DNA of 63,935 bases, counting the filler, from Rozella allomycis CSF55 (Eukaryota): the NCBI GenBank assembly GCA_000442015.1. It is 5 parts of 5 records of this genome, joined end to end, with 100 filler letters (N's around TTAATTAATTAA, not from the genome) between each part and the next. Parts side by side here need not be neighbours in the genome. Positions count along the whole stretch, not along the records: positions 31,913 to 58,511 come from KE560403.1; 4 more parts are not named here. One strand, written 5' to 3'. The translations under genes were made by a program, and so were the position numbers. Shown in pieces: positions 4,807 through 62,931 of this stretch (the stretch's first letter is position 1; every line of letters begins with the position of its first letter). The notes below the pieces were generated by a model that was given only the letters and a program-made list of their open reading frames with translations, searched no databases and had not been told where the DNA came from.

Positions 4807-4957
4807 TTCTGTCTTGTGTTAACTTACGTGGTCTCGATCCGCTTAGTTACAATGGAGAATATGTACATACATATTTGTATTGATAATTTAAAGATTCTAA
4901 TTTATAAATAATTTGGTGATCTATTTTTGACAATTTTAAAATAACTGTTTTATTAGC

Positions 4958-6832
4958 TTATTCGGATGCGGATTTTATGAGCGCCTGCTTTATATCTTCA
5001 ATCAAGTCATCAGTATCTTCAATTCCAACTGAAAGTCTGATTAAGTTATCAGTTATTCCCAATGCAAGTCTGTCTTCTTTACTGACAGACCCATGAGTCA
5101 TCAAACAACTACTCAAAGATATATCTAGCTGTTACGGAAGTTCAGCCAAGGATTCAACACCACCCAAACTTTCCGCTAGTGTGAATATTTTCAACTCTGC
5201 CAAAAATTTATTNCTTATTCGCATGCAGATTTTATGAGCGCCTGCTTTATATCTTCAATCAAGTCTTCTGTATCTTCAATTCCAACCGAAAGCCTGATTA
5301 AATTATCAGTTATCCCTAATGCAAATCTGTCTTCTTTACTAACAGACCCATGAGTCATCAAGCAACTACTCAAAGATAAATCTAGTTGTTACGGAAGTTC
5401 AGCCAAGGATTCAACACCTCCCAAACTTTCCGCTAGTGTGAATATTTTCAACTCTGCCAAAAATTTATTGGCTACTTTCAAATCTCCGTTTATTCTAAAT
5501 GAAATCATGCCCCCGAATCCACTTTGCTGGCGAACAGCAAGGTCATGTTGAGGATGTGATTTTAAACCAGGGTAAATGACTTGTTTAACAAACTTAGNGC
5601 ATTGGCTACTTTCAAATCGCCATTTATTCTAAAGGAAATCATGCCCCCGAATCCACTCTGCTGACGAACAGCAAGGTCATATTGAGGATGTGATTTTAAA
5701 CCAGGGTAAATGACTTGTTTAACAAACTTAGTTTCTGAGGAAAGATAATTAGCAACTGCCAATGCGTTTCTTTGGTGTTTTTCCATTCTAACTTCCAAGG
5801 TTTTAATACCCCTATGCACAAGGTAGCAATCAAAAGGTGATGGCACCGCGCCAATAGCATTTTGTAANCTCCAAGGTTTTGATGCCCCTATGTACAAGGT
5901 AGCAATCAAAAGGTGATGGCACCGCGCCAATAGCATTTTGTAAAAATGCTAATTTCTCGTATACATTTTCATCTTTAATGACTGCGATGCCCATGACTGC
6001 ATCTGAATGACCATTTATATATTTTGTCATTGAATGGACTACAATATCAGCACCTAATTGAAGAGGCTTCTAATCATGATCCAGATTTTGGATAAATACT
6101 TGAAAATAAGGTGACAAAAAGGTATTGTCTACAACGACTAATATGTCTTTGTCGTGTTGGTGCACTATGTTAGATATTGCTTGTATGTCCACCAATCGTA
6201 GCTAGTGTTCCTTGGCTGAATTATTTACCGTCGGATTTGTAGGTGTTTCAATCCAAACCATCTAGTTTCAATATACTTTTTGGATTTACTTTAGTATTGC
6301 TCTTAATAGCGGATCTTATATTTTCAGGATCATTCAAATCAACAAAAGTTGTTTCATAGCCAATTTGCTTNTAATATACCTTTTGGATTTACTTTAGTAT
6401 TGCTCTTAATAGCAGATCTTATGTTTTCAGGATCATTCAAATCAACAAAAGTTGTTTCATAGCCAATTTGCTTGGCAACTTTGGTGAAGAATCGGTAGGT
6501 TCCACCATAAACATCGTTGACTGATATTATGTGAGAGCCCTTTGGGAGTAAGTGAACAATCGTCGCCGTCGTAGCAGAACCAGACGCAAAAGCCAATGCA
6601 TGTTTGCCACACTCGATTGCTGCCATTACACTTTCAAGATTGGATCTGGTTGGATTTCCAGAACGGGAATATTCAAATCCCTTTATTGTAAAGATATTTC
6701 AATGCATACCTTGTGTACTCCAACAGACTCTTGCTTAAATGTAGTGGATAACGATATTGGAGGAATTACGGCACCGGTTACAGGATCCGGCTCTTGACCC
6801 GAATGAATCAAATGTGTTGCGAAGTTTGTCAT
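4958..6832 (-). CDS. CYS3: Cystathionine gamma-lyase (PLP-dependent)
   Basis: [55 protein letters not shown] (PLP lysine), FTLAESLGG and LIRLSVGIE. Allelic duplicates around Ns. Confidence 0.95.
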
Positions 6833-11587: not shown

Positions 11588-14500
11588 CTAATTTATTAAA
11601 TCTTGTGATACGAGTAGTTTGCTTGTCTTTTTCCGTTTGACTGTATATGTTTTCATTTTGCCCTTGCCTTTAATTTGCTGGATACCTCTATAATCAAATT
11701 CAAAGTCGTCGCGCAGCAACATATAAACTTTTTCTGTGACTTGAATTTCTCCAGGGTTGGCACTTGATTCCTAATTGTTTTAAAATCTTTATTGTATTAC
11801 CATCCGCGACGCGACATTTACAGTATCGCCCCACACATCATATGAGAATTTACTCCTTCCAATTACTCCAGCGACCAGTGGCCCTATATGAATGCCAATC
11901 ATCAACTTGTATGCGGAATTGTATACCAAATTGATTTCATTTATTTTTGATTGGAGGGCCAACGCATATTCCAAAAAGCGTTTGTACTTTGCTTTTTTGG
12001 ATGCATCTTCCTTGTTTATTTGGTATTTGACATTAAGTTTTTCTTCGCTGGCAAGTTCAGTTTCAACTTCGCAGATCGTCAATGAGGGTGATCCAATATT
12101 GTTATCAATACTTTTACTTCTATATCGTTTTCTTGCCTGGGATTTATAATCTTCCAGTCCACAGGCACTCATGTAAGTTGCATATGAACCTAGTTAAATA
12201 ATTAAATTTAAGTGGTACCAACTGTTTTAATCTTCTCAACTCCATAAACAGGCAACAATTGATCGAATCTGCAAAAAATATCATTTAAGATGGTAATAGA
12301 CCTTTCATCTGTTTCTCTAAAATTGTGAACCGCGCAAAATAATATTCCCGCGCTTTCAATGCAATCTGAAATTTCTTTATCAGGATGGCGCTTCAGTCTG
12401 TCGACAATGTGTTTGGGCAAAAGTTTGTATAACAATTTTTCAGCTTTCAGTCTCATATCATCAATTTCAAATTTCCTTTGCTTCAGATCAGTTTTCAATA
12501 GATAAGTGATCCGAACTCCAAGCTCCAATTTTCTTGAAGAGAGTGACAAGAGTATAATAAGAAGAGTTGCGAAACCAACAGTGGAATAATTAGTACGTAT
12601 TAAGAATGATTTCGGCTGGAGGATGTGGAAGATGAGACTGTAGAATCCATTGATAATTGTTACAGATTTCCAACTGAAGCGGGTGTACAAAACTGAATTT
12701 AAAATTATAATGTAAATATCAGCGAGAATTAAATTATAATAACGCAAGAAAATGATGTGAAGAATAAGCTGAGTGATTTCAAATACAAAAAACCAAATAG
12801 GAAAAAGTAATCCATGTTTGATGTCAATTGAAATAATGTTTCTTGTGATATTTAATAATTTATCTCCAAATGTTCCAAGTTCTTTTAATAAAAAGTTCTT
12901 TGGGATTGATGATGATTGTCTAATAGCTTTGTCATAAAGATTGATTTTTAAATAAACGTAAAGGATTTGAAATAGTTGAAGAAAAAGGCCAATTAAACTA
13001 ATCCGCCATGGCCAACCTTCTACAATTAAAATGGAATTCTTTATTAGTTGAACTAGACAAATTATTGTAGTGAAAATTAAATTTAGCATTAATCGTCCAT
13101 TATATTTAGAGGAATGAATACTAAGATATTCTTGTTCTTCTTCATCCCTCTTAAAAGTAACTGTAAATTGGTTTATTGATTCATTCATTTTCTTTCTTAT
13201 TGGTTCCATTGTTTCATAAAAAGCTTTATTAGAATTTGGAATTGAATTTGTATTTTTAACTGTTGTGCTAAATAATGCTCTTCTATCAATTGTGTGTTGT
13301 CTAGAAACTGGAACAGACTTTGCAACACTAAACCTTCTGGGAATGATTGATAGTCTTCTACTTCTGGCAACTGGTTGATTATCTTCTAAAAATTCTACTT
13401 GTTTATCTTCTTTTACTTCTTGACTCAAATTGGGTTGAANTACTAAACCTTCTGGGAATGATTGATAGCCTTCTACTTCTGGAAACTGGTTGATTATCTT
13501 CTACAAATTCTACTTGTTTATCTTCTTTTACTTCTTGACTCAAATTGGGTTGAATTGTTTGATCCAAATTTAACTTTTTCACAGATTCATTAATATCAGT
13601 CACAAAATATGTTTGAATATTCCTTTTGGTATCTTCATGATACAAAACTTCCCCTTGTTCAAGGGTACAATAATCCTCTAATAAATTCTTCGTGTCTTCT
13701 GAAATGTGAACACTTGATGGTCGTCCCGTCTGCTCCATCATAGAAGCTATTGTAACATCATTCGACCAAACATCTTATTTTATTCAAACATTATTTTTTA
13801 CCGAAGATTATTCGTTCTTCACCTAAAATACCTGCAACAACATCTCCAGTGTGAATTCCAACACGAAGCTGCAAAGAAACTGGCTGAAGAGCAGTCAAAG
13901 TGCTAACCGCTCTAATCATTTTCTTCCCAACAACAACAGCTTTCAACGCATGATGAGACACTGGCTCAGGCAACCCCGCACAAAGCATATAACAGTCCCC
14001 AAGTGTCTTAATCTTTTCAAGCCCATACTGNGGACCAAACATCTAATTATATTTAAACATTAATTGTTACCAAAAATTATTCGTTCTTCGCCTAAAATAC
14101 CTGCAACTACATCTCCAGTGTGAATTCCAACACGAAGCTGCAAAGAAACTGGCTGAAGAGCAGTCAAAGTGCTAACCGCTCTAATCATTTTCTTTCCAAC
14201 AACAACAGCCTTCAACGCATGATGTGACACTGGCTCAGGCAATCCCGCGCAAAGCATATAACAGTCCCCAAGTGTCTTAATCTTTTCAAGTCCATAATGT
14301 GCGACAATATTATCAAATTCCAAGAATATACTATTCAAAAGTTCCACCAAATATTCAGCAGAAACGGTGGTCGACAATGTAGTAAATCCAACAATGTCTC
14401 CAAACAAAATTGTAACATTCCTATAACTATACGTTGGATTAGACATAATTCCATTCAAATCAACCTTTTCACCTTTGCGAAAATCATCCCAAACACCCTT

Positions 14501-16107: not shown

Positions 16108-17010
16108 ATGGATGATTTTCTCACGGAAAATGTTCTTTCATCTGCCGACAAGATACAGGAAGCGCTTTCAAGACTTGCCAACTATTACATAACGCACAGA
16201 GCCGATTTTTGCGATAAACAAAAATGCGCGCAGTTCATTGACTCGGCTATATCCATTGTCGAGCGGATCAAGGCTATGGATATCCAAATCAATGCGGACG
16301 GCTTCAATAGTACACTTTAAAATCCATATTAAAGTAGACTGCGATGAAGCTCTATTGTATATTCTGCGACAGCCACTATTTCATTCATTGCAAAACGAAA
16401 AGCTGGCTCAGTGTATCAGATTTCTTGAAACATTCAATTTGCCGATAGAAAAATCTATAGATTCTTTTCTTTACAGTACTGAAAGGGCGATTCAAGTTAA
16501 ATTGGTAATGTTGAAGGGAATTTCGCATGTGCCTTCAAAGATTAAACTATTGGCGCGGATAGGACCGCTGTTGCAGATTCTGGATGATGTTAAAGTGATT
16601 AACGAGTATTTGAGTGTTTTGAGTGAATGTATAAAGTCACTTGAGGGGAGTGAAAAAGAAGCGTTGATGAACTGTTGTCTGCCAAAATCATTTGTACAGC
16701 GTATTTTAAGATCAAATAATATGAGAGAGTTGCTTAGTGTGGAATCCAAAGTGTTTATTTTGAGGGAAAACAGGGAATTGCTGGGAGAATATGTAAGAGG
16801 ATGTTTGTGAGTTGAATAGATAGATATTGTCGCTAATAATGCTGGACAATGCATTGAAGATGCTGCACTTATTTTGTCCCTGGTGGCCGATAACAGATCG
16901 AATGTTGAAGATTATCCAGAGTTGATTCTGCGCTGTTTAAGAGTAGGAGTTCACACAGTTTCCATCGACTTCAGAGACTAGTGGATGAACTTTTAAAAAT
17001 TTTGAAATAA
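16108..17010 (+). CDS. Hypothetical alpha-helical protein
   Basis: Open frame maintained through 3 canonical tiny introns; no family recognised. Confidence 0.6.
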
Positions 17011-20000: not shown

Positions 20001-22540
20001 TAAATTCTTCTTCTTCAATAAACGCCTTTTAATCCACTTTAATTATTTTACTCGGCTAGTTTTCAATGTTTCATCCAACAATTGATTCATTGGGAAATCA
20101 TGCATCGCCATCATAAATGTTTCAAGCGCTTTCTTTCTTTTATCAATTCTAACAGACAGATTTATTTTAATATTTTCATTCTTAAATTTTACATAAACAT
20201 CTTTCTAATCATTCAAAACAATAGTTTACCTTGAATTTCTTCCCTCCTACAAGTTTCGTAAATTTCCAAAATAAAATGCTTAATAAAATTCATCAATTCA
20301 TAATTGGTTGATAATCCTTTATTCAATTCTATCAAATTAACAAACTTATCAACAAAGAATGTACAATCTTCAACAAAATGTGAACATGAATTGGAAATTA
20401 ATGAAATTGCAAACCTTTGTGCCTTTTTTATTCCAAGCGAACTAGCCTTTTCCAAATACAAATCCAATTCTTTGTTTAAAACAATTGCAATCTTTTCATG
20501 AATCAAACTATCTCTCATTCTAAATGTTTTATATTCAAATAGACAATCAAAATCACACTGTTTTAATTTATTTTGAAAATGAACACTCAAACATGTACAA
20601 ATAAGTGCAGATCTCTTTTCTTCATTAGAAACTTTTAATAAAGAATCAATAGACAGAATTGGATGCGATGAAATGTTTAATAAACTTAAATGCTCAATGT
20701 TAATGTTTGGACTATTCTCTGTCATACTAGAAAACGCGTCTTCATCAAAATCATTCAAATGGCCTTCATTCAAAATTCCAAGCCAAACACAATTCATCCA
20801 AATCTCTGTAAACATTTCAGAATATTCTTTAATTATCTTTTCTTCTTTTATTTCTTCTTTAATAAATTTATTAAAAGTATTTATAAACTCTGAAAAGATT
20901 GAAATTAAAGATGAAACGTATTCAAACTTGAAATCTGCATTCATTCTCGTTTCATGCAGAATTTGAAGAAATCTTTGAATAAAACTTTTCCCAATTTCAT
21001 ATTTAACATTCTTTAAAATATTTCCTTCATTTATTAATTCAATCAAACATTTATTCGTTGTACAAAATTCAGCTTCTTTTGTTTTAACAACATTCTTCAT
21101 CAAATGTTCAAATAAAATCTTCATTGAATCTTCACTTAAATTATTAAAAAATAACTTTAATCTTTTGGAAAATATCGTTTGAATAAAGTTATCATTCAAA
21201 CAAAGCAATCTATTCAAAAATGAAACATAACTTTCATTTCCCTTTCTATCTTTATTAAATTCTAAAAGATAACAAAACAGTAACGTCAAAATTCCAATCT
21301 TCATTCTCCCTTCATAAACTACTTCGTCTTCATCTTGATCTTCAAAACAAATCACACTAAAAACTTTGCCAATAATTATTTCCTTTTCTTTCGATTTGTT
21401 AATAATCTTAAATAAAATTCTAGCACTCAATTCTATTAATTCATCTGTCTGAAAAGGAAACGTTTCAAATACATTTGACATTTCTTTTATAAACGAACAC
21501 AAATAGTTTATTGCTTCCTCCTCCTTCTCATCACTATCAAAATAAATCATCAAAATAAAGCCCTTTAATGATTCAACCAAATCTTCATTATCCACTGAAA
21601 ATACAAATTGAAAATCATTCTTCATTTTTTCAAACACTTTGCTTCTTTTTATACTTGCACATATTCCACAACACTTTAAAAGAATCGGTACTGCTTTTGA
21701 ATATTCCTTGAAATTATAATCTTCTCCAGCAAATGTCTTTTCCTTGATATGCAAAATTATCTTTTCAAAGTTTAATATAAACTCTGCAACCTTCATCGGC
21801 ACCTTGATTCCAGCATCCACAAATTCCTCAGCATTAGCCACCCCACAGTACGAAAACGTCAATTCATAAAACATGTTCAATCCACAATGCACAAAATCCA
21901 CAAAAGAGTCTCTCTCCAATACATCAACCAACTCCACATTCTCAAACGTCTTTATCATATCAACCACAATCCCAAAATTACACTCGCTCACCCTATTCCT
22001 CTTCACACAAGTACTCATCCCATCCACAAACTCAATTAAAACATCAACCGCATATTTCTCACCCGCCTTCAGCACATCCACATAAAACTCAAACAACTCC
22101 ACCACCGCATCACACTTCTCCAGCTTGTAACACGTCTCTATAAAACACCTCATAATCAGCCCAATAAAAGAATCACAGTCTGTATACTGTATCTTGACAA
22201 AATGCCGGCACAGAAACGAACAGTACTCATTCACCTTGTGCAGGTACATTTCGTTGGACATTTTTATCGCAGCATCGGCAACCTTTTCTAGTATTATACC
22301 GTCAAACGACGTCTAGTTAAGGAGAGAGTTGTTTGTTACTAGTGTGATCACCGCTTTTTCAAAATTGATTTCCGGAAGCATCGAGAATAGCCGCACTATT
22401 GTTTCCGGATTGTCGCTCTTTAATGAGTCCACAAAGGATTTTAGGACGGATGTTGAGGGAAGAAAGGACAAATTTCGCATACCTGAAATTTCAAAATGTG
22501 ATGCGTTAAATTTAGACACAATTGGTGTTCCATTATACAT
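17099..22540 (-). CDS. STT4: Phosphatidylinositol 4-kinase III alpha (Stt4)
   Basis: LFFIPQIVQALR (PIK helical domain), LQSHAKAPF, AIFKVGDDCRQDVLALQ, IKDRHNGNIM, HIDFGF, FESAPFKLT and C-terminal NGIPYK. Long helical N-terminus. Confidence 0.95.
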
Positions 22541-23491: not shown

Positions 23492-24180
23492 ATGAATGCA
23501 CACACGACGGATTTATATACTCCAGTAACTTTTAAATAATCTATAAACGAGGTCCCGACAAGTGAAATCCCCGAAACATCCACGCACCAAGAAACCGCAC
23601 AACCTATGGCGCCCACTTCCAAAGACGCAGTATTTGTAAATATTCCAGCGAAGCCAAGTCCCGAAAACTCAGTAAAGCTTGATGCCACTGGAGAGATACC
23701 ACCAGTAAGCATAAATTTGGTTGTTAATGTAGACTTATGAATCAGTGGCTACAGATGCTGTTCCACCTTATACAGAACCTACAATTAATATTAATTTAGT
23801 CTCTGAAGAAATGCGAGGTAATATTTGTTGTGTTGTTTGATCAAGATCTTGTTGATGGCTATCCAGTCGGACATCCAGTGACGTTTCTAGTGTCATTTTT
23901 CATATCAGTGTTTTTCCAGACAATTGGATTTGTAATGTCTTTTGTTATGGCATCTGACCATTCAGGCCGCTTTGGATCATTAGCTGGGTTTGGGTTGAAT
24001 TTGGTGTTGATGGTTGTAAGTGATTACAAAAGCTTTTTTGGTGATGATAATGCCATGATATTCTTGAATTCTTTTATTGGTATATTTGGATTACTGATTA
24101 TGGTGTTTTCTATTCGCAGATATATTTCTATGAGGAAACTCGTTTGCAATCCGGTTTCGCCACAAGCTGAAAATGTCTAG
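23492..24180 (+). CDS. Bsd2/NDFIP-like Nedd4-family adaptor (PY motifs + 3 TM)
   Basis: AVFVNIPAKP, PPTYE...AVPPY, DGYPVG...FQTIGFV...GSLAGFGL; 3 tiny introns. Confidence 0.8.
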
Positions 24181-24401
24181 TAAAAAGTTATTCGATCTGT
24201 TCACAATAACGGGTCATAGTTATGTTGCATAAATAAATCGCCCTAGTCTTTTATAGTAAATGCTACAAGTTAGATCTAAAGTTTCATTTTTATTAAGCAT
24301 CGTTGATATCATTAAATTAGCATAGCTATGCGTATACAAAATTAATTAATTCTTTCAAAGTTTGAAAGACCAATTATCCAATTAAACCCTGGTCAAAATC
24401 A

Positions 24402-27400
24402 ATGACTGAACTTTCCTTTCAAGGACGTGTAGCAATTATCACTGGCGCAGGCGGTGGTCTCGGCCGCACCTACGCGCACCTGCTAGCATCTCGTGGAGCG
24501 AGCATTGTCGTGAATGATTTGGGGGTGACTCGCAGCGGGTCAGGGCACTCATCCAATGCAGCGGATGTTGTAGTTTCTGAAATTGTGAAGAATGGGGGCA
24601 AGGCTGTTGCAAACTATGATTCTGTTGAGGATGGCGACAAGATTGTTGCGTGTGCATTGAAAGCGTTTGGGAGGATTGATATAGTGATTAACAATGCGGG
24701 GTAAGAGGATGGGATGTTTGGGAGTAGGATATTGAGAGACAAGAGTTTTGCCAAGATGAGTGATGAGGACTGGGATCTGGTGTATCGTGTGCATGTGAGG
24801 GGCAGTTATAAGGTGACCAAGGCTGCGTGGCCGCATTTGATGAAGCAAAAGTATGGGAGGTATGGTTGATGGGTGGTTGTTAGTAGGATTATAATGACGT
24901 CGAGTGCCGCTGGGATTTATGGGAACTATGGGCAAGCTAATTATAGTGCGGGTAGGTGTTGTTTGGAGGTTTTATTGTAGCTAAAGCGGCGTTGGCTAGT
25001 TTTGGGTTTACATTGGCGAGAGAGGGGGCACGAAATAATGTTTATACGAATATTATTGCACCGTTGGCGGCATCGAGGATGACTGAGAGTGTGTTGCCGC
25101 CTGAGTTGCTAGCTGCATTGAAGCCTGAATTTGTGGCGCCAGTTGTTGGATGGCTGTGTCATGAGAAGAGTGAGGAGAATGGAGGGTTGTTTGAGTTGGG
25201 AGCGGGGTATGTTGGCAAGTTGAGATGGGAGAGAAGCAAAGGGGTGCTGTTGAAGACTGATGAGAGTTTGACGCCTGCAGCTGTTGGCGCCAAGATTGAA
25301 GAGGCTATGAATTTTAAGAATGTGGAGTATCCAACTGCGATAACTGATACTGATTGGGTAGGATTGGCGGAAAAGGCCAGGGAATTGAAGAGGAATGAGA
25401 GTAGGGAGGATATGAGGTTTGATGGAAGAGTGGTGATTGTTACTGGAGCAGGAGCGGGTATTGGCAGATGTTATGCATTGATGTTTGGAAGATTGGGAGC
25501 AAGTGTTGTGGTGAATGATTTGGGCGTGAGTACAACAGGACAGGGAAGCAGTTCAAGAGCTGCAGATAAAGTTGTTGAAGAGATTAAAGGCTTTGGTGGA
25601 AAGGCTGTAGCTAATTATGATTCAGTTGAAGAAGGGGAGAAGATTGTTGATACGGCAATTAAATCGTTTGGAAGGGTTGATGTTGTCATTAATAATGCTG
25701 GGATATTGAGAGACAAGAGTTTTATGAGGATGAGTGATGAAGATTGGGATTTGGTGCAAAGAGTGCATGTGAGAGGTAGTTTTAAAGTGGCTAAAGCGGC
25801 ATGGCCATTTATGATTAAGCAAAAGTATGGAAGAATAGTGAATACAGCATCAGCGGTTGGATTATATGGAAATTTTGGACAAGCTAATTACAGTGCGGGT
25901 AAAGTGGAGTTTATTTATATATTTAATAGCAAAGTTGGCGTTGGTTGGGATGAGTAACACTTTGGCGCAAGAAGGAAGTAGATTTAATATTAAAGTGAAT
26001 ACTGTGGCACCAAATGCAGGTACCAGAATGACAGGTAAAGAATTTTAAAGAAGATTAATAGCAACGATATTGCCACCAGAGATAGTGGAAGCATTGAAGC
26101 CTGATTTTGTAGCGCCGTTTGTTGGATATTTAGCCAATGAAAAGAATGAAGTTAGTGGAGGTGTGTTTGAAGTTGGATCAGGATGGATATCAAGAGTTAG
26201 ATGGCAGAGAAGCAGGGGAGTAGCATTTCCCATAAGGAATGGATTTAGTATTGAGCAAGTTGCATCCAAGTGGAAAGAGATTGTTGATTTTAAGAGTGTT
26301 GATTATCCAACTAATCCAACTGAGTCTCTTTCAATGATGATATCAAGTGTAGAGAATGTTAACAAACCAAGTGACAAGACTGATGATAAAGCAATTGATA
26401 AGACTACTGTTAAGAGTGTGAATGTGGAAGAGATAAGAAAAGTAGAGTTGCCAATATTTGATTATAAATTGAATCAAGAGATTGTTATTTTGTATAATTT
26501 GAGTGTTGGAGCTAAAAGAAAAGATTTAAAGTATACGTTTGAGTTGTCTGATGGATTTTCAGCTGTTCCTTCAATTGGAGTGATACCAGGGTTTCTGTCA
26601 TCGTTTAGTGTTCCATTGGATAAATATTTACCACCGTTTAATCCAATGATGTTATTGCATGGAGAACAATATTTAGAAATTGTTGGGAATGTTCCAATTA
26701 AAGGAGAAATGAAATCTCAATCTAAAATAGTTGATGTTGTTGATAAAGGGAAAGCAACAGCAGTGTTAATAAAGACAATAACAAAAGATGAGAATGGAAA
26801 TGTTTTATTTGTTAGTGAATCTACTAGTTATATTTTAGGCTTAACAAAATTAAATGTTGGAAAGAAATGGTCAGTTGAAAGACCATCAGCTGCAATATCT
26901 GATAATCATCCACCTAATCGTTCACCTGATTTTGTTTCAAAGGATTTTATTCCAGAAACACAAGCAGATTTGTATCGTTTATTAGTTGATAAGAATCCAC
27001 TTCATGTTGATCCCTTAATGTCTTCTTTAGCTGGATTTGATCAACCTATTTTGCATGGGTTGTGTACATTTGGTTATTCAACTAGAATGATTCTTGAAGC
27101 GTTTAATTTAAATTCAAATCAAATTAAATCAATCAAAGTTAGATTCAATAAACATGTTTTCCCTGGTGAAACAATTCAAACTGAAATGTGGAAAGTTGAA
27201 AATAAAATCATCTTTCAAGTCAAAGTCTTGGAAAGAAATGTGTTCGCTATAACAAATGCTGCTATTGAATTAAAAGATTCTTCTTTTCCAAAATTAATTG
27301 CTTCTTTTTCTTCTTTCAAATCAATTCCCTTGTTAAAAAGTTTAAAGTTAAATTCTGATTTAGCCAAAGTAAGTTTATCTTTCTATTTCAACTAGTTGAA

Positions 27401-44694: not shown

Positions 44695-46413
44695 ATGGCA
44701 TTTTTCGCATTCGCCCTGAAGTTGGTGAAGCATTCACCTTGTTTTATTTATTGCGATTCTCAAAATATTTCAAAGCCAATACATGAGAATAGACCATTTG
44801 TTATCAAGAAACTACGATTTGCAGATGTTATTCCTAAAAGGCCACAGAATTTCACCCTATTTAAAAGATGCATTAGGCTAGCAGCATTTTTTATTCCTTT
44901 GTTAATATCTTACCCATTNGGAATTTCACCCTATTTAAAAGGTGCATTAGGCTAGCAGCATTTTTTATTCCTTTGTTAATATCTTACCCATTCTTTAAGC
45001 CTTGTAAAATAGTTTGGTACAAATGGTTCAAATGGACCCTTAGCAGGAACGGTGCATGCTTTATAAAGTTGGGTCAATGGCTGTAAAATATATAATATAT
45101 GGAAAAAGAGCAACACAGACTAGTATTGTTGGTAAAGACTTTGCTCGTATTTTATGTGACCTTCACGATTCTGCTTATGTTCATATCATGGATGAGAAAG
45201 CAATTCTTGGAATAAAGGGGTTAATCAATGTTGCAGTAAAACCGATTGGAGCAGGATGCATCGCTCAGGTAACATAATCTATTGAAATGTATAGGTTCAC
45301 AAGGGTGTGTGGAATGCTGATGGTGTTTTGCAAGAAGTTGCTGTAAAAATCAGACATCCGAAAGTGTACGAAAATGTAGTTTGCGATCTCACTATTATAT
45401 ATGAAGCATTCAAAATACTAGAGAAATTGCCAATAATCCAATCAATTCTCAGAAAGGAGCAGATTCTTGTTTTTGGCAAGTCAATGATGGAGCAAATAGA
45501 TTTGCGCAACGAGGCTGCTCATATGAATATTTTTAGAGAAAATTTTAGGAAAGAAAAGGATGTTAGTTTTCCTCGAATCTTGTACTGTGACAAGTCAACT
45601 ATTGTCGAGTCATTTGAACCCGGCACATCGTTAATGCAGTTAAAAGAACATTTGGACGAAGAAGCAAAAGAGAAGATTGTTTTCAAGACGTTAAAGGCCT
45701 TTATCAAGATGTCTATTGTTGATAATTTCACGCATGGTGATCTGCACCCGGGAAATATTCTAATACGCTTCCAGCTGAAACGAGCAAAGAAGTTTTGGAA
45801 CCGCTTTTGGGATGTAAAATCAATACCATTTTTCGATTTCTGTGGAGAAATGGATGCAATGCCGCTTCCTTTTGCTAAACCAAGATTACAAGAAACTTTA
45901 GAGTCACCAAAAGAAATAGAAACAGGACTTGAAAAGTACCCAAAGGACTATGAACCATGCCTTGTAATTTTAGACACCGGCCTAGTGACAAGACTCGAGC
46001 AAGAGCAATACACCAATCTTCTCCTACTCTTTTATTCCCTGATCCTAGAAAAGAATTCCGAAAACGCAGCCAATTTAATCCTGCGCCAAGCGCATCAGGG
46101 CGACTGCCCGAACATCAGCCATTTCCTTGTCGAGATGCCGATTCTGATTGACAGACATTTGAGAAACGGTGCTGTTCCCGATATGACTGATATTCTCGGC
46201 GAGGTTGTGTCGATTGTGAGGAAGAGCGGGGTGGTATTGGACGACAAGTTTTTGGGACTGTTGATTGGGTATCTGGTGCTGCAGTGGGTGGGAACGGATA
46301 TTGCGCGGGGTGTTGATGTCAAGGATGTTGCGAGGAGTGTGCATGATGAGTATCTTTGTAATCATAAGCCTTGGATTAAGATTATTGAAGAAAAGTATTC
46401 ACAAAAATTGTAA
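44695..46413 (+). CDS. ABC1/UbiB atypical kinase (ADCK2-like)
   Basis: FIKLGQW, PIGAGCIAQVH, VAVKIRHP, QIDLRNEA, HGDLHPGNI and LDTGL. Confidence 0.9.
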
Positions 46414-46549
46414 AGTTAATATTAATGTATTAGAATATAAAATTTATTTAATTATTTAAATTTTCAAATCTTTTTACATTCTTCTGCATTCTCTATCCAT
46501 CTTGCAACTTACTCTGTCAGTGGCTTGAGCAACCCCTGCAATAATTTTT

Positions 46550-49500
46550 ATGTCATCCTTATCAAAACAGTTAGAAACACTGCGATCTCTGAACCGCAGA
46601 TTATTTGATGCCGATGCCCCTGTGTCACTAGAGCAGACGCTGAGCCGAGCGCTTCGCGTGTTGTCTCGCCAACCGACGCTATCAAAGTACCAAGCGACGC
46701 TATTCAGTGAATCGCAACTAGGCGTAGATCGTGGCCACATGGTAAGCATATAAAAAATTCTTTAGCAGACATCCGAAGAGAGTGCAAAGTTTGACCAAGA
46801 ACTGCGGAAATTTTTGCAAGACGCGAGTAGTTTGTGGATGCGTGACGGGATGATGGATGTGTATGCGTGGTTGTGTGATAAATGGCGAGTGCATAGGATG
46901 CTTGTTGATGAGTTGCTGATGAGTGTGATGTGGATGCACGAGACTTTTGTTTTTGCTAGGATTTGTGTCAAGGTTCCTGTTGAGGAGCATGAAAGATGGC
47001 GGTTTTTGGAGGGTTATAAGAGAAAGTGGAGCAAGGTTGTGAAGAGCGGGGAGGAGGGCGAGGGGTTTGGGAGGGAGATGCTTGTTGATAGGATGAAGAG
47101 TGATAGGGACGTTGGATTGCGATTGTTTGAGTATGGGTGTTGTGTTGGGGGACGGGTGTTTGTGTTTGGAGTTTGTTTGCTGGTTGAGTGGATGCAGGGA
47201 TTGAAGGTGTTTANATGAAGAGTGATAGGGAGGTTGGATTGCGATTGTTTGAGTATGGGTGTGGTGTTGGGGGACGGGTGTTTGCGTTTGGAGTTTGTTT
47301 GCTGGTTGAGTGGATGCAGGGATTGAAGGTGTTTAATGATGAGAATGTTGTGCTTGTGTTGAAGGCTGTGAATGCTGCGATGAAGAGTGGAGATGAAGGA
47401 GTTAGAGTGGGAGGGATGATGCTTGTGTGTCAGTTGAGTTCTAATGTAAAGTTGAGTGAGCAAGTTGTTGAAGCGTTGATGGTTGAAATTGTTAAGGGAA
47501 GTGGGAAAACAGTTGATGAAGTGTTGTATGCGTTGTGTGTGTTGTTTGAAACGCAAGATTTGAAGAACATCCNGATTGTTAAAGGAAGTGGGAAGACAGT
47601 TGATGAAGAGTTGTATGCGTTGTGTGTGTTGTTTGAAACGCAAGATTTGAAGAACATCCCAGTTGAAGTATTGAATAAAATGAGTTTGGTTGATGGAATT
47701 GAAATGAAGATGAAGGAATTTGTAGATAGATATGAAATTCAAAAGTTTGTTGAGAGATTTGTGATTGGAATGATTGAAATTAGAATAGATCTAGTTGAAA
47801 AGATTATTGGAATGAGAATTGTTAAAGGAAAGATTGTGGAGAGTATTTTGAGAAAGATATTTGCCATGGAGCCAAAGAGAGGTGCAGGGGTGATAGAAAA
47901 GATGATTGAGAATTATTCTAAAGAGATGAGTGAGTTTGTTCAGTTAAATGGAATCAAAGAAGAATATTTTGGATTGATGACTGGATCATTTTCAATTGTT
48001 AAAGATCAGAGTTTATTTTTAGCGTTGAATCATTCAGAATCATTTGTGAGATTAACTGCGATTAAAGAAGTTGATAGAATTGTGAATGAAGAGAATAAAG
48101 AACAATTTAAGAGAGAAATTGGGAGTATTTTGATTGATAGATTGAGAGATGAAGATGAAGAAATAATTAACAATGTTTTGGATTTGAAGTATTTGATAGA
48201 TTTAACAGGAAAAGAAATATTTAATGAATTGTTGAGATTGAGTGAAAATGAAAAATTTAAGGATAAAATAGAAAAGATTTCAGTGGGAATCGAACGGGTA
48301 GATCCAAAAGAATATTTTGAATTTTGTTTGAAATTTGAGAAAATAGATTTTAGAAATGAAGAATATTTTGATTTGTTAATTGAAAATGAAAAGTTTAAAG
48401 AATTGATTGTATTTAGTAGAGAGAATAAAGAAATTGCTGAAAGAACAATTAGTTTAATGATTTCAAAGCCAATTAATGTTGTTAGAGAATATTTAAGAGA
48501 AATAATAGATTTAGAATTTGAAGAAGGAATTTATTTTGAAATTATTAAATATTTGATAAAGAATGGAGAAATTGAAATGATGAAAGAAATGTTTAAGAAT
48601 ATGAAGAATTTGATTTCTATTCTTAGTTCATTTGCATTACATAATGGGTTAATTGGATATGAACTATTATCAAGTTATTTCAAGTCACTCCCACGTAAAT
48701 TAACACTAATTGAAGACCATGAGAAGGAAAAGAGTGGAATGGTAGAGAATAACAAAGCTAACACTAATAAACATGATAACAAAACTAGCAATGATAACAC
48801 TACGTCTACGTTGATCTTGTTGGAGTTGTGCTTTGGATTGATGAATAAGAATAAAAGAATTAGAGAAATTTGTTTAGATTGCATTTCTTTAATAAATCAT
48901 AAATTTGTTTCAAAAATTGTTAAACTAAAAGAAAAGATTATTCTAGATCCAAAATCTATTAAATGTTTATTTAAACAAGAAATACTATTTGAAAATGTAT
49001 TCAAGAGAGATCAATTGAATTTCATTGTAGAATTATTTATAGAAAATGAAAATGATGTTTATTCATTATTAATAAACAAATTTGACAAAGTTGATGAATT
49101 AACAAAAGATGAATTTAAATTAATTTTGAAAACATTGAGATTGCAAGGGTTAGAAAAAAATATTCTAAAAATAGAAACAATGAAATTTAAGAATCTATTT
49201 TTAGAAACATCAAAAGAATTAATTCCAAAATTAAAACTAAAAGAGCAATTTGAATTATTGAATAAAATTATTAGAGAAGAAAGTTTGATTATTTTGATTT
49301 CTAATTTCTCTGCCAAAGTGTTGATTGAAATGATTGAATCTGTTCTTGTTGTTCCAGAAGAAGATGAAGTTGTAGTCGAAGGAAAGAGGAAAAAGGGATC
49401 CAAAGAAAAGAAATCAGCTGAAAAGAAACTAAAAGATGAAGAGAGCAAAGGGGACTCTATTAGCTCTGATTCCAACTCTAATTCCAACTCTAATTCAAAC

Positions 49501-55548: not shown

Positions 55549-55758
55549 TCCTAAGCTCCAAAGCGTGGGTGGCAAAGCTAATCAGATTAGATTACCATTT
55601 CTAGGGAAGTTTTAATGGTCATGATTTTTAACACGCTGTTTCTTTCAAAAAATAAATTGGTTTAAAAGAAAGAAGGATATGAGAACCATGTAATTTTAAT
55701 AAGTAGTTTTTGCATTTCACGAAAACGCAACTTGGAATTTTCGAAATAGTTTTTCACA

Positions 55759-58342
55759 ATGGACTTTAAGGCACTTTTAGAGCGATCCAAGAGCTTATCG
55801 TCACAACTTGCACAGCCTTCTATTTTACCATGCATAGATAGAAATTTAGAACAAATCGACAGCCAAACTAGGCGCCTATTTTCTGAGCAAACGTTTCCTT
55901 CTGACGCTAATGCGTAACAAATTATATTTTCCTTTAAAAGTTACTATTTATTATCTCAACGTGGATTTAATCCTGAACCGTTAGAAAATGACCTAAAATC
56001 ACTGCCTACATTGGCTATGGACGTTGAGCCTACCCCAACTGTAGCTGACACTGATGTCGTTGTAATTTTTGTGTAAATAATTTAATAGGGGTTTATAAAA
56101 CAACAAAGACAAAATTTAGTGATATCTATTTTGGAAGAGCAAAAATGCAAGAGCAAGGAGCGTGCAAAGAAAATTTATCAAGACGCTGTTAAGGCGCACT
56201 GGGAAAAAATTAAAAAGAAGACGATATCATCATTGCCACCAAAATCTGGAATGAAGGTTGCGTCAACGTCTGGGCAATTTTCATCGTCTTTGAATGAATT
56301 TTCTTTAATAGTTAAAGAATATGTCAAGGAAATTAATGAAGGAAACGTAGGTTATCAATTCTGGCCTAGACTGTTGAATGTATTGAAGAAGGTTGCTTTT
56401 AATGAGCAAATGGTTGATTGCTTTGAATTACTTTTTATGATTAATAAAGAAAGCGATAAATTAAAGGCATGCAAAACGTTTTTAGAAAAGCAAATGTTTA
56501 GATTTATTGAGAAAATGGTTCAAAGACAACCACGTGAAGCGAACGTTGGTGGAAGTCCTTCTGTGATTGACAAAGTGAGGGTAAGTATGTTAGGGACTAT
56601 TTTTAAGGGATTCCTGAATATAAAATATAAACAGTTTAATGAATGGGATCCACAATTAACCATTGTGAATAACGTCCCGATTTTCGCTTTAGTTTTTTAT
56701 TTAATTCGATGTGGTTTTTGGACTGAGGCTTTGAATGTTTCGATGCAGTATAAAGATTTCATAGAAAGAAAGGACGTCCATTTAATATCCTTTCTAAAAG
56801 CGTACATGGATGACAAGGTGAATCCATCCATGAAACAAATGATAAACTCTGAGTTTTCACGAAAGCATCCAAATGATGATAGATTTAAGGTGGCTATCTA
56901 TAAAATTCTTGGACAATGTGAAGTTGAAAAGAAGAATATTCCAGGGGTTATTCAGTCCAGGGAGGATTATTTGTGGCTTCAAGTAAGAATTTGATTTGAA
57001 AATAATTTGTATTACTTAATGAATGATACTTATGATTTGAAAATGCTGCAGAAAAATATTCGTGATTTTGGTCCAAAACATTTCAATGCGAATCATAATC
57101 AATTGAACTATTTTTCTGTTCTCGCATTATCTCTACAAATTGAACTTGTAATTCATCAACGTAAAATTAAGATAGGCGCTTGGATATTTATTTGCAGAGA
57201 CAAATTATTGTAGTGAGGCAGTTCATTGCTTTATAGCATTGTCTGGAACTCTGAACCTTAACGATTCTGTTAGCTCGGAGATTGTTGAAGAAAAGAATGG
57301 AAATTATTTGTTGAATCCAGTTCAAATGATTTTCACATTTATCAAGAACAATCAATTGCCACTGAACCTTGCAATTCCTTACGTCATTTTTCTTTTCAAC
57401 ACAGAAAAGAAAACTTATTACAAATCACTTTATTCTCTTTTGAGAGATTTAGTTATTGAAAGCAAAGAGTTTGCATTCTATTTGGGTAGCGTTAAACCAG
57501 ATGGAAATAGGATGGTAAAATTTACGAAATTTCTTAAATTATAGCCGGGGTATTTGGAAGATTATTCTAGATTTATAAAATTATCTTCAAAGAAGGAATA
57601 TAATAAGGAAATTATTGTACCCATCGCAAATCATTTAATTTCTGTTAATCAATTTGAAGAATCTTTGCATTTGTTTAACTTGGCTGAAGAATATGATAAA
57701 GTTATGGATTTGTTGAATAAGAATCTTTCAAATTCAATTTCAAATCCTAATGAGCAAATTACTTTGATGGCTCAACAAATTCTTTCTTACTATCAAAGTC
57801 AAGGAAAACCAGTAAGTCTTGAGAAAACAAAATCATGTGAAACTCTTTTGAAACTATTTCAATTCTTTTCTCTATATCGCAATCAAAAATATGAACAAGC
57901 ACAAAATGTAAATTTCTGTTTCTCATTTCAAAAGGTTATCGAAGATTTGAAAATAATTCCAACTGATCAATCACAAATTCATTCTTCTTCTGTTCAATTT
58001 GATGAACTCTTGTCTGTTCACATCCCAGAATTGCNTATTCCAACTGATCAATCACAAATTCATTCTTCTGTTCAATTTGATGAACTCTTGTCTGTTCACA
58101 TCCCAGAATTGCTGTTAGCCGTTATGAATGTTTATTCCGCCATTTACCAACGTTTGAAAACATCTCCAATTAGAGATTCCTCCCGAGAATCAGTAATTCT
58201 AACATTGTGCCTTGAACTTTAGATTTTAAGAGATATTAAAAAGAAGTCAAGAGTCATTATGATGTTTGCCAGTATTGCTCAAGTTCGTGTTCCTCAAGAT
58301 ATTTTGGCGAAAATGAACCGCTTAGATGTTTTCATGAATTAA
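55759..58342 (+). CDS. NUP93: Nucleoporin Nup93/Nic96
   Basis: LPCIDRNLEQI, REANVGGSPS, PIFALVFYLIRCG, DRFKVAIYKILG, EDYLWLQ and FGPKHF. Confidence 0.92.
56983..57009 (+). other. Candidate non-AG intron (27 nt GT-TG, or 24 nt GT-AT)
   Basis: GTAAGA donor with an in-frame TGA inside. No AG occurs until 57051, and using that AG would delete the Nic96-like YDLKMLQ segment. Confidence 0.6.
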
Positions 58343-58511
58343 ATAAAGTCAATTTACAGTATTTTATATGCTCCAATTTCCTTAATAACCTAGCATGGTC
58401 AAATCATTATTGTATTGTGTATAGTGTATCTGTACCCGTGTCCCATAAATAGTTAAGTGTTTTTTTAAATATATTACTCAATTCATTGTGGTTTTGCTAC
58501 AAATGTTTAAC

Positions 58512-58611
58512 NNNNNNNNNNNNNNNNNNNNNNNNNNNNNNNNNNNNNNNNNNNNTTAATTAATTAANNNNNNNNNNNNNNNNNNNNNNNNNNNNNNNNN
58601 NNNNNNNNNNN
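58512..58611. other. Artificial contig-joining spacer
   Basis: N-TTAATTAATTAA-N, 100 nt. Confidence 0.97.
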
Positions 58612-59678
58612 ATCAAGTTTAGCATAATGATTAAATTGTTTTAGTAATTCGAATGTCAAATACTTTTGACATTACCGAAAATTGAATACCTTTATAATAA
58701 CAAGTGGAGGGATGCATGTAGTCAATAATTCATAAATCTTTTTCCTTATAAATAATAACTTTGAAGGGGTTTGCTCTCCTATTATGTCTTTAGCGATAGC
58801 AACGATTGCGTCTTGCCAATCAAACCCTTCCAAAACAGTATTTTCAGGCACTGGATAACTAATATTATTTGAGTAATACTTTTACTTTCTTGAAATCTCA
58901 GCTTCTAACATGATAACCGCGGCCCTTAAATTTCTTTCAGATTGTATTGCTATCTTTTCTGAAACAATATCTGGAATCGCTAATCTTTCCTTCTTTGCAA
59001 CTCCATTAAGAACTTTAACAGTTTGATCAATAGTCGGCGAGGGCACGCGAATCATAAAACAACGACTTCTAATAGGAGCAATAATCTTGCTTAAAGAATT
59101 GCAACACATTATGATCCTCATGTTATTTGCATATTTTTCCATGGTTCTTCTAAGTGCGTGCTGGGCGTCAACAGATAATGAATGAGCTTCGTTTAGTAAC
59201 ACTATTTTGAAACTTTTATTGGAACTTGTATCCACGGATTGGGTTTGTGCAATCTCTTTAATAATTTCTTGCACCACAATTCTATCATAAATACCAACGT
59301 CACTGAACGATTCGAGATTAAAAAATTACCTGGGAGTTAGTTCAATATGATAGTTGCTTGTAATTACATTTACGTCAACCTTTTTGCTTGATGGTGTGAC
59401 AAAAGACTTGGTGTCTAACCGAATCTCATAAGCTTCATTTCAAATACTTACTTTTTCTGCGCCAGGACCAAATATTTCTTTTAGAAAGGCGAATATTCTA
59501 GTTTTCCTTCCTGATCCAGGAGGGCCATAGAAAAGCAAGTGAGGCAAATCTTCAGTTTTTGCCTAGAAAATAAAACGGAATGATATACCAATTTTTTTAA
59601 CTGCTCAGTAAGATTATTATGAAAATCTAAATCGTTTAGAGAGCTTGGACGATATTTATCCACCCAAAGTTGACTCAT
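58612..59678 (-). CDS. RFC3: Replication factor C small subunit (human RFC3 / yeast Rfc5); 3' end lost in gap
   Basis: [45 protein letters not shown] and PIRSRC. Confidence 0.95.
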
Positions 59679-62092: not shown

Positions 62093-62831
62093 AGCAATAC
62101 TTTGAGCCACTCCTCAACATATAGTCGACATTCCCACACGGATCCTTGTAATTACTTCCTCGACTGTCTGCAACTACACTCTCGGTTAACAAAGTTGAAA
62201 TATTAGCACAAACCTCAACGCCACCTTCAAGAAATTTCGTAAATAAATTTTTTCTTTACCCTGGTACGTCCAGTTTTTCATTTGTTTTAACAACCATAAT
62301 AATGATGCCATTTATGACTGTGAAGAGTACATTCATTGGACACTCCAAAGCTAGTATTGCGTTTTTGGAACAATTTTGTTCACACATACTAGAAAACAAT
62401 TATAAAACTATTTATTAACGTTCTCTAATTTGTTAAAAGTTTCTCGTGCAGTCTCTATCAAATCCGTTTCTAAAGCTGAGTAGCTAGCCGATAAACCGTC
62501 GTTTTGTTATCGTTTAACAACTTTGGCATTCCATGACAATCAACTTGAAACAATAGTTTTCAAAAGATAATTACCATAAGTTCTGTTTGGGTTGTTTCCC
62601 GCCCAAAAAGATTTAAACAATTATGGAAAGGCCTTTTCTCGCTATGAGGCATAGATAATGTATATTCTTTGTAAATATCTTTTTGACATTCACTGGCATC
62701 GTGTCTGGTGAATAAATAAGTTTTCGATAAGCCAAATGGTTCATGAGTATATATTATCTATTTTAGAATAAACGGGTAACGTATCGTCTTTGAAATAATC
62801 CAACACAGACATATCGACGCTTGAAGAAACC

Positions 62832-62931
62832 NNNNNNNNNNNNNNNNNNNNNNNNNNNNNNNNNNNNNNNNNNNNTTAATTAATTAANNNNNNNNNNNNN
62901 NNNNNNNNNNNNNNNNNNNNNNNNNNNNNNN
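62832..62931. other. Artificial contig-joining spacer
   Basis: N-TTAATTAATTAA-N, 100 nt. Confidence 0.97.

Follow-up and report, generated by a model that had tools for sequence, protein, structure and literature searches.

Ultra-short introns also occur in Microsporidia, Paramecium, nucleomorphs and dicyemids. To our knowledge these systems are described as GT-AG, without a non-AG acceptor in the descriptions; the intron of the Nup93/Nic96 gene of Rozella allomycis CSF55 considered here differs from them in its TTG end. In R. allomycis S23 the introns were described as measuring about 30 nt and as lacking strong motifs (PMC6349667), and median intron lengths of 29–197 bp were given across species including R. 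allomycis (PMC8042348). In humans, Szafranski et al. 2007 (PMC2374985) recorded TG 3' sites in 36 genes, solely as alternatives and with an AG no farther than 28 nt away; mutants in which an AG had become TG were found to activate neighbouring AGs, with no splicing at the TG. The literature searched on Rozella introns and splice sites contained no report of splicing at a non-AG acceptor in this genus.

The gene lies in a window of 63,935 nucleotides, filler included, made up of five parts of the CSF55 assembly joined end to end, and the coordinates of its features are collected in Table 1. The introns of the window resemble those of these ultra-short systems, R. allomycis S23 (PMC6349667) included, in their tight lengths of about 27 nt, their weak motifs and the in-frame stops of introns that are a multiple of three in length. 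Judged from the sequence, ligation at a non-AG site in this Nup93 intron, most likely as a 27-nt GT-TG intron, is given an even chance. Like the human TG sites (PMC2374985), the intron combines a normal GT donor with TG for AG and keeps the last G, and its position -3 is a pyrimidine (T), as in the human TG-AG tandems; it departs from them in having T at +1, where the human sites have a purine, and in the 42 nt that separate 57009 from 57051, where the human tandems span at most 28 nt. The Nup93 TG is further unlike them in that an intact protein would require it as the principal site, within an intron of 27 nt (PMC2374985). Since the human TG sites are never the sole site and have an AG within 28 nt, they count against sole use of this TG, with its nearest downstream AG at a distance of 42 nt. 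The lost AG and the in-frame AG downstream in a 69-nt model are, in turn, like cryptic 3' site activation as presented there (PMC2374985); unlike such cases, the 69-nt intron would exceed twice the length of every other intron that the window requires and would delete a conserved segment of a scaffold nucleoporin.

Table 1. Coordinates of the Nup93/Nic96 gene and of the features around its intron without an AG acceptor, counted along the window.
Feature	Position	Strand	Basis
Nup93/Nic96 gene, 9 exons and 8 mini-introns	55759–58345	+	PF04097 matches, homologue profile
Exon 4, ending in EDYLWLQ (GAG GAT TAT TTG TGG CTT CAA)	56608–56982	+	PF04097 match
Proposed 27-nt intron: GTAAGA donor, in-frame TGA at 56992–56994, end TTG, no C, 22% G+C	56983–57009	+	
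TTG in place of the usual TAG/AAG	57007–57009	+	DNA runs, catalogue of 45 introns
Disputed 42 nt, translated as YYLMNDTYDLKMLQ where only 27 nt are removed; part of the intron in the GT-AG model of 69 nt	57010–57051	+	
CAG, first AG downstream, acceptor of public model P0001	57049–57051	+	C at -3 in 1 of 45 catalogued introns
Rest of exon 5 in both models (KNIRDFGPKHF...)	57052–57147	+	PF04097, human NUP93 alignment
Block of haplotype differences: +T behind 56989, 57015 C>T, 57044 T>C, 57069 T>C, 57081 T>C	56989–57081	.	

The gene was found to be an intact Nup93/Nic96, as the original prediction had held, with PF04097 matches and full-length family similarity over the nine exons, and removal of eight tiny introns leaves an unbroken reading frame of 2364 nt. 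The other seven introns are indeed short (27, 27, 27, 28, 30, 27 and 30 nt) and all GT-AG. Single exons matched PF04097 with 108.2 bits (exon 4), 81.3 bits (exon 7) and 40.5 bits (exon 6) at a cut-off of 34.2, below which exons 5 and 3 fell when taken singly (33.4 and 27.9 bits, respectively). Residues 2–125 of exon 4 correspond to positions 81–210 of the Nic96 profile and exon 5 to positions 225–265. Against a profile built from 125 homologues, the whole protein gave one full-length colinear Nup93 match of 563 bits (profile positions 22–774 of 861). The best five solved-structure matches of exon 5 were all Nup93, with E values of 0.12–0.71 that are weak since the query is short, and from query residue 7 the exon aligns with residues 434–473 of human NUP93 in 5ijn_C, with a weak E from the same short query. 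Towards the end of the gene, positions 57956–58034 recur at 58037–58112 with one TCT different, on either side of a single n at 58036; this looks like two overlapping contig ends joined unmerged, an assembly duplication that gives a false repeat of 26–27 residues in the C-terminal part of the protein. One DNA run (X5) has a 3-nt deletion at 57982, inside the duplicated stretch.

The letters of the odd intron are as had been described. EDYLWLQ ends at 56982 and the GTAAGA donor starts directly behind it, followed by the in-frame TGA, and a scan of 56983–57051 gave no AG before 57050–57051 except the one at 56986 inside the donor. The donor fits the consensus, and the same hexamer is present at the catalogued introns at 16793, 24701 and 1624. 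Removal of 27 nt, ending AATAATTTG, joins WLQ in frame to YYLMNDTYDLKMLQKNIRDFGPKHF; removal of 24 nt (GT-AT) adds a Leu after WLQ, as anticipated; and removal of 69 nt, which is GT-AG and in frame too, gives WLQ followed by KNIRDFGPKHF. Peptides specific to the products would be EDYLWLQYYLMNDTYDLK where 57010–57051 are kept and EDYLWLQK in the 69-nt model. Compared with a canonical U2-type intron, the AG end is absent (the 27-nt intron ends in TG, the 24-nt one in AT) and the length is ordinary, 27 nt being the modal value, while 69 nt lies outside anything needed in 22 gene regions.

Other kinds of intron were also considered for this stretch. The consensus of U12-type donors is /[AG]TATCCTT, and a U12 or AT-AC reading was rejected, GTAAGA not being a donor of that type; a formal 27-nt AT-AC cut (56989–57015) starts with ATTTGA and scored 563.9 bits against the homologue profile, no better than many in-frame cuts. 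Moving the donor so that the intron closes at the AG of 56982-3 or of 56986-7 produces stops, and the junction motifs do not match those of an IRE1-type intron. Folding of the RNA of 56975–57065 revealed no structure beyond chance and none that brings the distal AG closer (z = +1.34), and a scan of the window with Rfam gave 0 matches.

The introns of the window were catalogued as GTA...AG stretches between coding-like open frames, with a filter of 22–33 nt and with the end nearest to 27 nt taken where several were available. The 45 introns so obtained measured 23–33 nt, within the 22–33 nt that the filter allowed, and 22 of them were exactly 27 nt long. Window-wide, the style of the introns is one of GTA donors, T or A at -3 and an A-rich -5, without a clear branch motif; position -3 was T in 28 of the 45, A in 14 and C in 1. 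Scored by 3' context, the end at 27 nt reached +2.15 and that at 24 nt +1.02, with values of -2.38 for an end at 30 nt and -4.38 for the distal CAG, true introns having a mean of 0.48 (sd 2.33). The +1 base after the TG is T, as in only 7 of the 45 introns, which counts against the TG. A codon-score chain permitting only GT-AG introns of 20–36 nt was then applied to 22 gene regions, 18 of which yielded a single unbroken chain with 0–13 introns each; over all 22 regions 92 introns of 20–36 nt were predicted (mode 26–29 nt), 81 of them at 24–31 nt and 18 at exactly 27 nt. The Nup93 chain breaks at 56973–56998. Breaks outside Nup93 were caused by Ns, a 1-nt frameshift or intergenic DNA, the intergenic reading being checked for the RFC region and assumed for a 174-nt gap in the Cys/Met region. 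With the requirement for an AG lifted behind GTAA donors, so that any acceptor dinucleotide could be used, Nup93 gained 39.5 score units and the other 21 regions 0–3.7. Hence no other intron above 36 nt is needed and this is the sole junction requiring a non-AG acceptor among about 93 in the window, so that the several such acceptors implied by the title of the original prediction were not recovered. With one such junction in about 93, nothing suggests a generally permissive spliceosome, and on the evidence of the window the odd junction looks like a one-off exception and not a genome-wide habit.

Apparent introns of 41 and 44 nt from early ORF-joining scans resolve to 29 and 26 nt, and a chain permitting introns of up to 150 nt, which skipped real small exons, was not used. 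On the minus strand, a GTAAAG donor and an in-frame TAA lie at 62259–62224 between open frames of 47 and 116 codons. An in-frame cut there needs a non-AG end or, equivalently, a GG donor; the frames have no Pfam match, and a canonical 35-nt GT-AG intron works only with a 17-codon upstream frame starting MASLLW. This may be the 'first' non-AG acceptor in the numbering of the original prediction.

The reality of the TTG was evaluated with the contigs of three DNA runs (X1, X4 and X5), which were compared over 55700–58030 and all of which cover 56963–57111. X1 is a possible source run of the window DNA, and X4 and X5 come from other samples or studies; at least two independent samples and studies are represented among the runs, all of which may derive from one cultured strain. 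A sequence artefact, in which the true genome would carry an AG at the 27-nt position, could be imagined in view of the draft state of the window, where single Ns occur, gaps are filled with linker and contig ends are duplicated. A genomic AG near 57006–57009 had been set as a test of the prediction, and at this place no letter other than those of the window was found in the contigs of the three runs, which represent two or more independent samples (one strain being possible), or in either of two haplotypes. Since the contigs of the three runs and the two haplotypes agree, the TTG is not an assembly error, and an artefact is considered extremely improbable. Over 56963–57111 the second haplotype accounts for 256 of a depth of 804 in X1 (about 32%) and for 154 of 366 in X5 (about 42%), and is absent from X4. 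It keeps the TTG, and its additional T behind 56989 makes the intron 28 nt long. In the 27-nt model the differences at 57015, 57069 and 57081 are synonymous third positions, and the one at 57044 exchanges Met for Thr at a variable position of the family. Five haplotype differences are thus packed into a stretch of 93 nt with the odd intron at its centre, and only three lie elsewhere in 2.3 kb (56080, 57856 and 57982). The cluster could be a gene-conversion tract, or could reflect relaxed constraint or compensation.

The additional T also bears on the absence of splicing, that is, on a TGA at 56992 that is read through or recoded, or on a copy that is decaying or null. The frame is open on both sides of this single TGA, and read-through would give a spacer of 30 residues between two anchor motifs of the family, EDYLW and [YF]G..HF, near the homologue mode of 31. 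A 1-nt insertion within the 27 nt, as carried by the second haplotype, would shift the frame of a read-through product, which supports an intron and argues against stop-codon read-through; the perfect donor, the modal length and the intactness of the rest of the gene over nine exons point the same way, and unspliced expression or decay is held to be very unlikely. The earlier view of the stretch as an intron and not as pseudogene decay is thus upheld: the donor is that of the species, the length is modal, and the haplotypes differ by a 1-nt indel of a kind tolerated in introns only.

Whether the 42 nt after the TTG are coding was assessed by comparison with homologues. The profile was built from 125 of 149 Nup93 homologues, those of 650–1050 aa being kept and P0001, a public model of this gene, being left out. 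Scores of 563.2, 566.4 and 530.9 bits were obtained for the 27-nt, 24-nt and 69-nt models, respectively, an advantage of 32 bits for the 27-nt over the 69-nt model that was obtained in spite of a bias against it, as the homologues had been retrieved with the 69-nt model as the query. Inserts of 14 residues served as null models (200 residue shuffles, 200 translations of shuffled codons and 200 random open 42-mers); all 600 fell short of 563.2 bits, and their means were about 546.5. Any filler of 14 residues therefore regains about 16 bits, and the real segment stands 16–17 bits above that. For in-frame cuts starting at the GTAAGA, the score was flat at 12–36 nt and dropped steadily from 39 to 75 nt. 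In an alignment of the family (A1), all 11 homologues have a segment that ends in L/F-Q before [YF]G..HF, and 7 of the 11 have a Tyr seven residues before that Q; P0001 is gapped there. For the spacer that separates EDYLW from [YF]G..HF, the 27-nt model gives a length of 21 residues and the 69-nt model one of 7, compared with 21–58 (mode 31, none below 21) in the 46 of the 149 homologues that match both anchors. Two homologues, P0014 and P0004, have exactly 21 residues, like the 27-nt model, and exon 5 aligned with both by BLASTP without gaps from residue 2-3. The codon score of the 42 nt (+0.30 per codon) is similar to that of the exons. The resemblance of the retained segment to the Nic96 Y-x-L-x-x-L-Q...G..HF element, which had been predicted, is supported by the homologue profile, the spacer and the ungapped orthologue alignments. 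The sole carrier of the exon-5 peptide in the protein database was P0001, with no near matches, and a metagenome scan with P0001 for relatives gave 157 pattern matches, 0 of which were confirmed. It is concluded with high confidence that the oddity in the DNA is real and that the 42 nt are coding, or were so until recently. Should the loss of the AG be recent, however conserved these 42 nt are, a segment that is still coding cannot be told from one that was so until a short time ago.

P0001 (671 aa; NCBI: hypothetical protein, partial, Rozella allomycis CSF55) is the only close relative in the database, and the window spliced in the same way differs from it by 1 residue in 670. It uses the 69-nt intron and a 54-nt intron 3, thereby lacking 14 and 9 conserved residues, and scored 502.7 bits against 563.2 for the model with short introns throughout. 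The 54-nt intron (56581–56634) removes GFLNIKYKQ, a match to the family consensus, at a cost of 28 bits, and a canonical 27-nt GT-AG alternative at 56581–56607 keeps these residues. As P0001 mis-splices intron 3, which served as a control, it is no evidence for the 69-nt junction. Gene callers confined to GT-AG and allowing long introns mis-model this genome, with a loss of 23 conserved residues over two junctions in the public model.

The 69-nt junction itself would follow from use of a cryptic AG. An ancestral TAG would have changed to TTG, ligation would occur at 57051 with 69 nt taken out, and Nup93 without 14 conserved residues would be tolerated or partly functional, the 42 nt looking coding since the change is recent. 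The removal is GT-AG and in frame and is the choice of the public model, AG>TG mutants in humans respond in this way (PMC2374985), and of the five haplotype differences three lie inside the 69 nt, among them the sole indel and the sole amino-acid exchange. Against it stand the loss of 32 bits relative to the family profile, a spacer of 7 residues where 46 of 46 homologues have at least 21, and the deletion of the conserved Y-x-L-x-x-L-Q-type segment, which is open and family-like in both haplotypes. No other intron of the window must exceed 36 nt, the CAG context is poor for this organism (-4.38), and the public model is not transcript-backed and deletes conserved residues with its 54-nt intron 3 as well. 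Use of the cryptic AG is accordingly a serious candidate that we nevertheless regard as rather doubtful, and a mixture of 27-nt and 69-nt products, intermediate between this and splicing at the TG, is quite possible. If the AG at 57051 is used, a scaffold nucleoporin tolerates the loss of a conserved segment, presumably part of a helix judging from family conservation, which would be informative about Nup93.

The best explanation is that 56983–57009 form a spliceosomal mini-intron of an intact Nup93, with TTG as its 3' end and the next 42 nt coding, a reading that we rate as evenly poised. The original claim of non-AG splicing stands in so far as the 42 nt encode conserved residues of the family, so that an intact protein needs a non-AG acceptor; it is weakened by the 69-nt GT-AG removal, which is also in frame. 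A U2-type spliceosome would bind the normal GUAAGA donor and probably branch in the A-rich tract, and in an intron so near to the minimum the 3' site may be set mainly by its distance from the branch. In spliceosome structures the last G of the intron pairs with the first, and yeast reporters with a UUG 3' site show weak splicing. The terminal G of the Nup93 intron would still pair with the first G, hence a U at -2 might be tolerated. Ligation would most likely take place at the TG of 57008–57009 (27 nt, with one more in the second haplotype), a less likely site being the AT at 24 nt; the TG is preferred on account of the splicing at UUG in yeast, the G-G pairing and the colinear alignment, free of gaps, with the shortest homologues. 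A GT-TG intron that is spliced constitutively in an essential housekeeping gene, with a 3' site set by distance and ligation at UG, would belong to a class reportedly absent from humans and is proposed tentatively, the sequence features leaving it somewhat short of an even prospect. Counting against the TG are the chance of about 6% of finding TG at a given position, the possibility that the in-frame removal of 69 nt could give a tolerated protein, and the fact that, of two haplotype differences within the 42 nt, the one at 57044 (Met>Thr) alters the protein. Were the TG used, it would be a natural and easily assayed case of a U2-type intron whose only 3' splice site is non-AG, and would bear on the choice of the second-step site in introns too short for scanning.

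Some further features of the window were recorded. Tandem copies that are 94% identical, spaced at about 260 nt, were found at 4957–5193 and 5214–5450, and at 13764–13931 and 14033–14200, one pair in the 3' end of a gene for a Cys/Met PLP enzyme and the other in a guanylate/adenylate cyclase gene. These pairs may be uncollapsed haplotypes set in tandem by the assembler or real duplications. Runs of N at 58513–58612 and 62871–62931 flank a linker, TTAATTAATTAA, which has stops in all frames and marks scaffold joins. GC skew reached -0.45 at 20001–22000 and +0.44 at both 24001–26000 and 46001–48000, in coding regions, and G/T-rich low-complexity stretches were observed near 24.7–25.0 kb and 47.1–47.2 kb.
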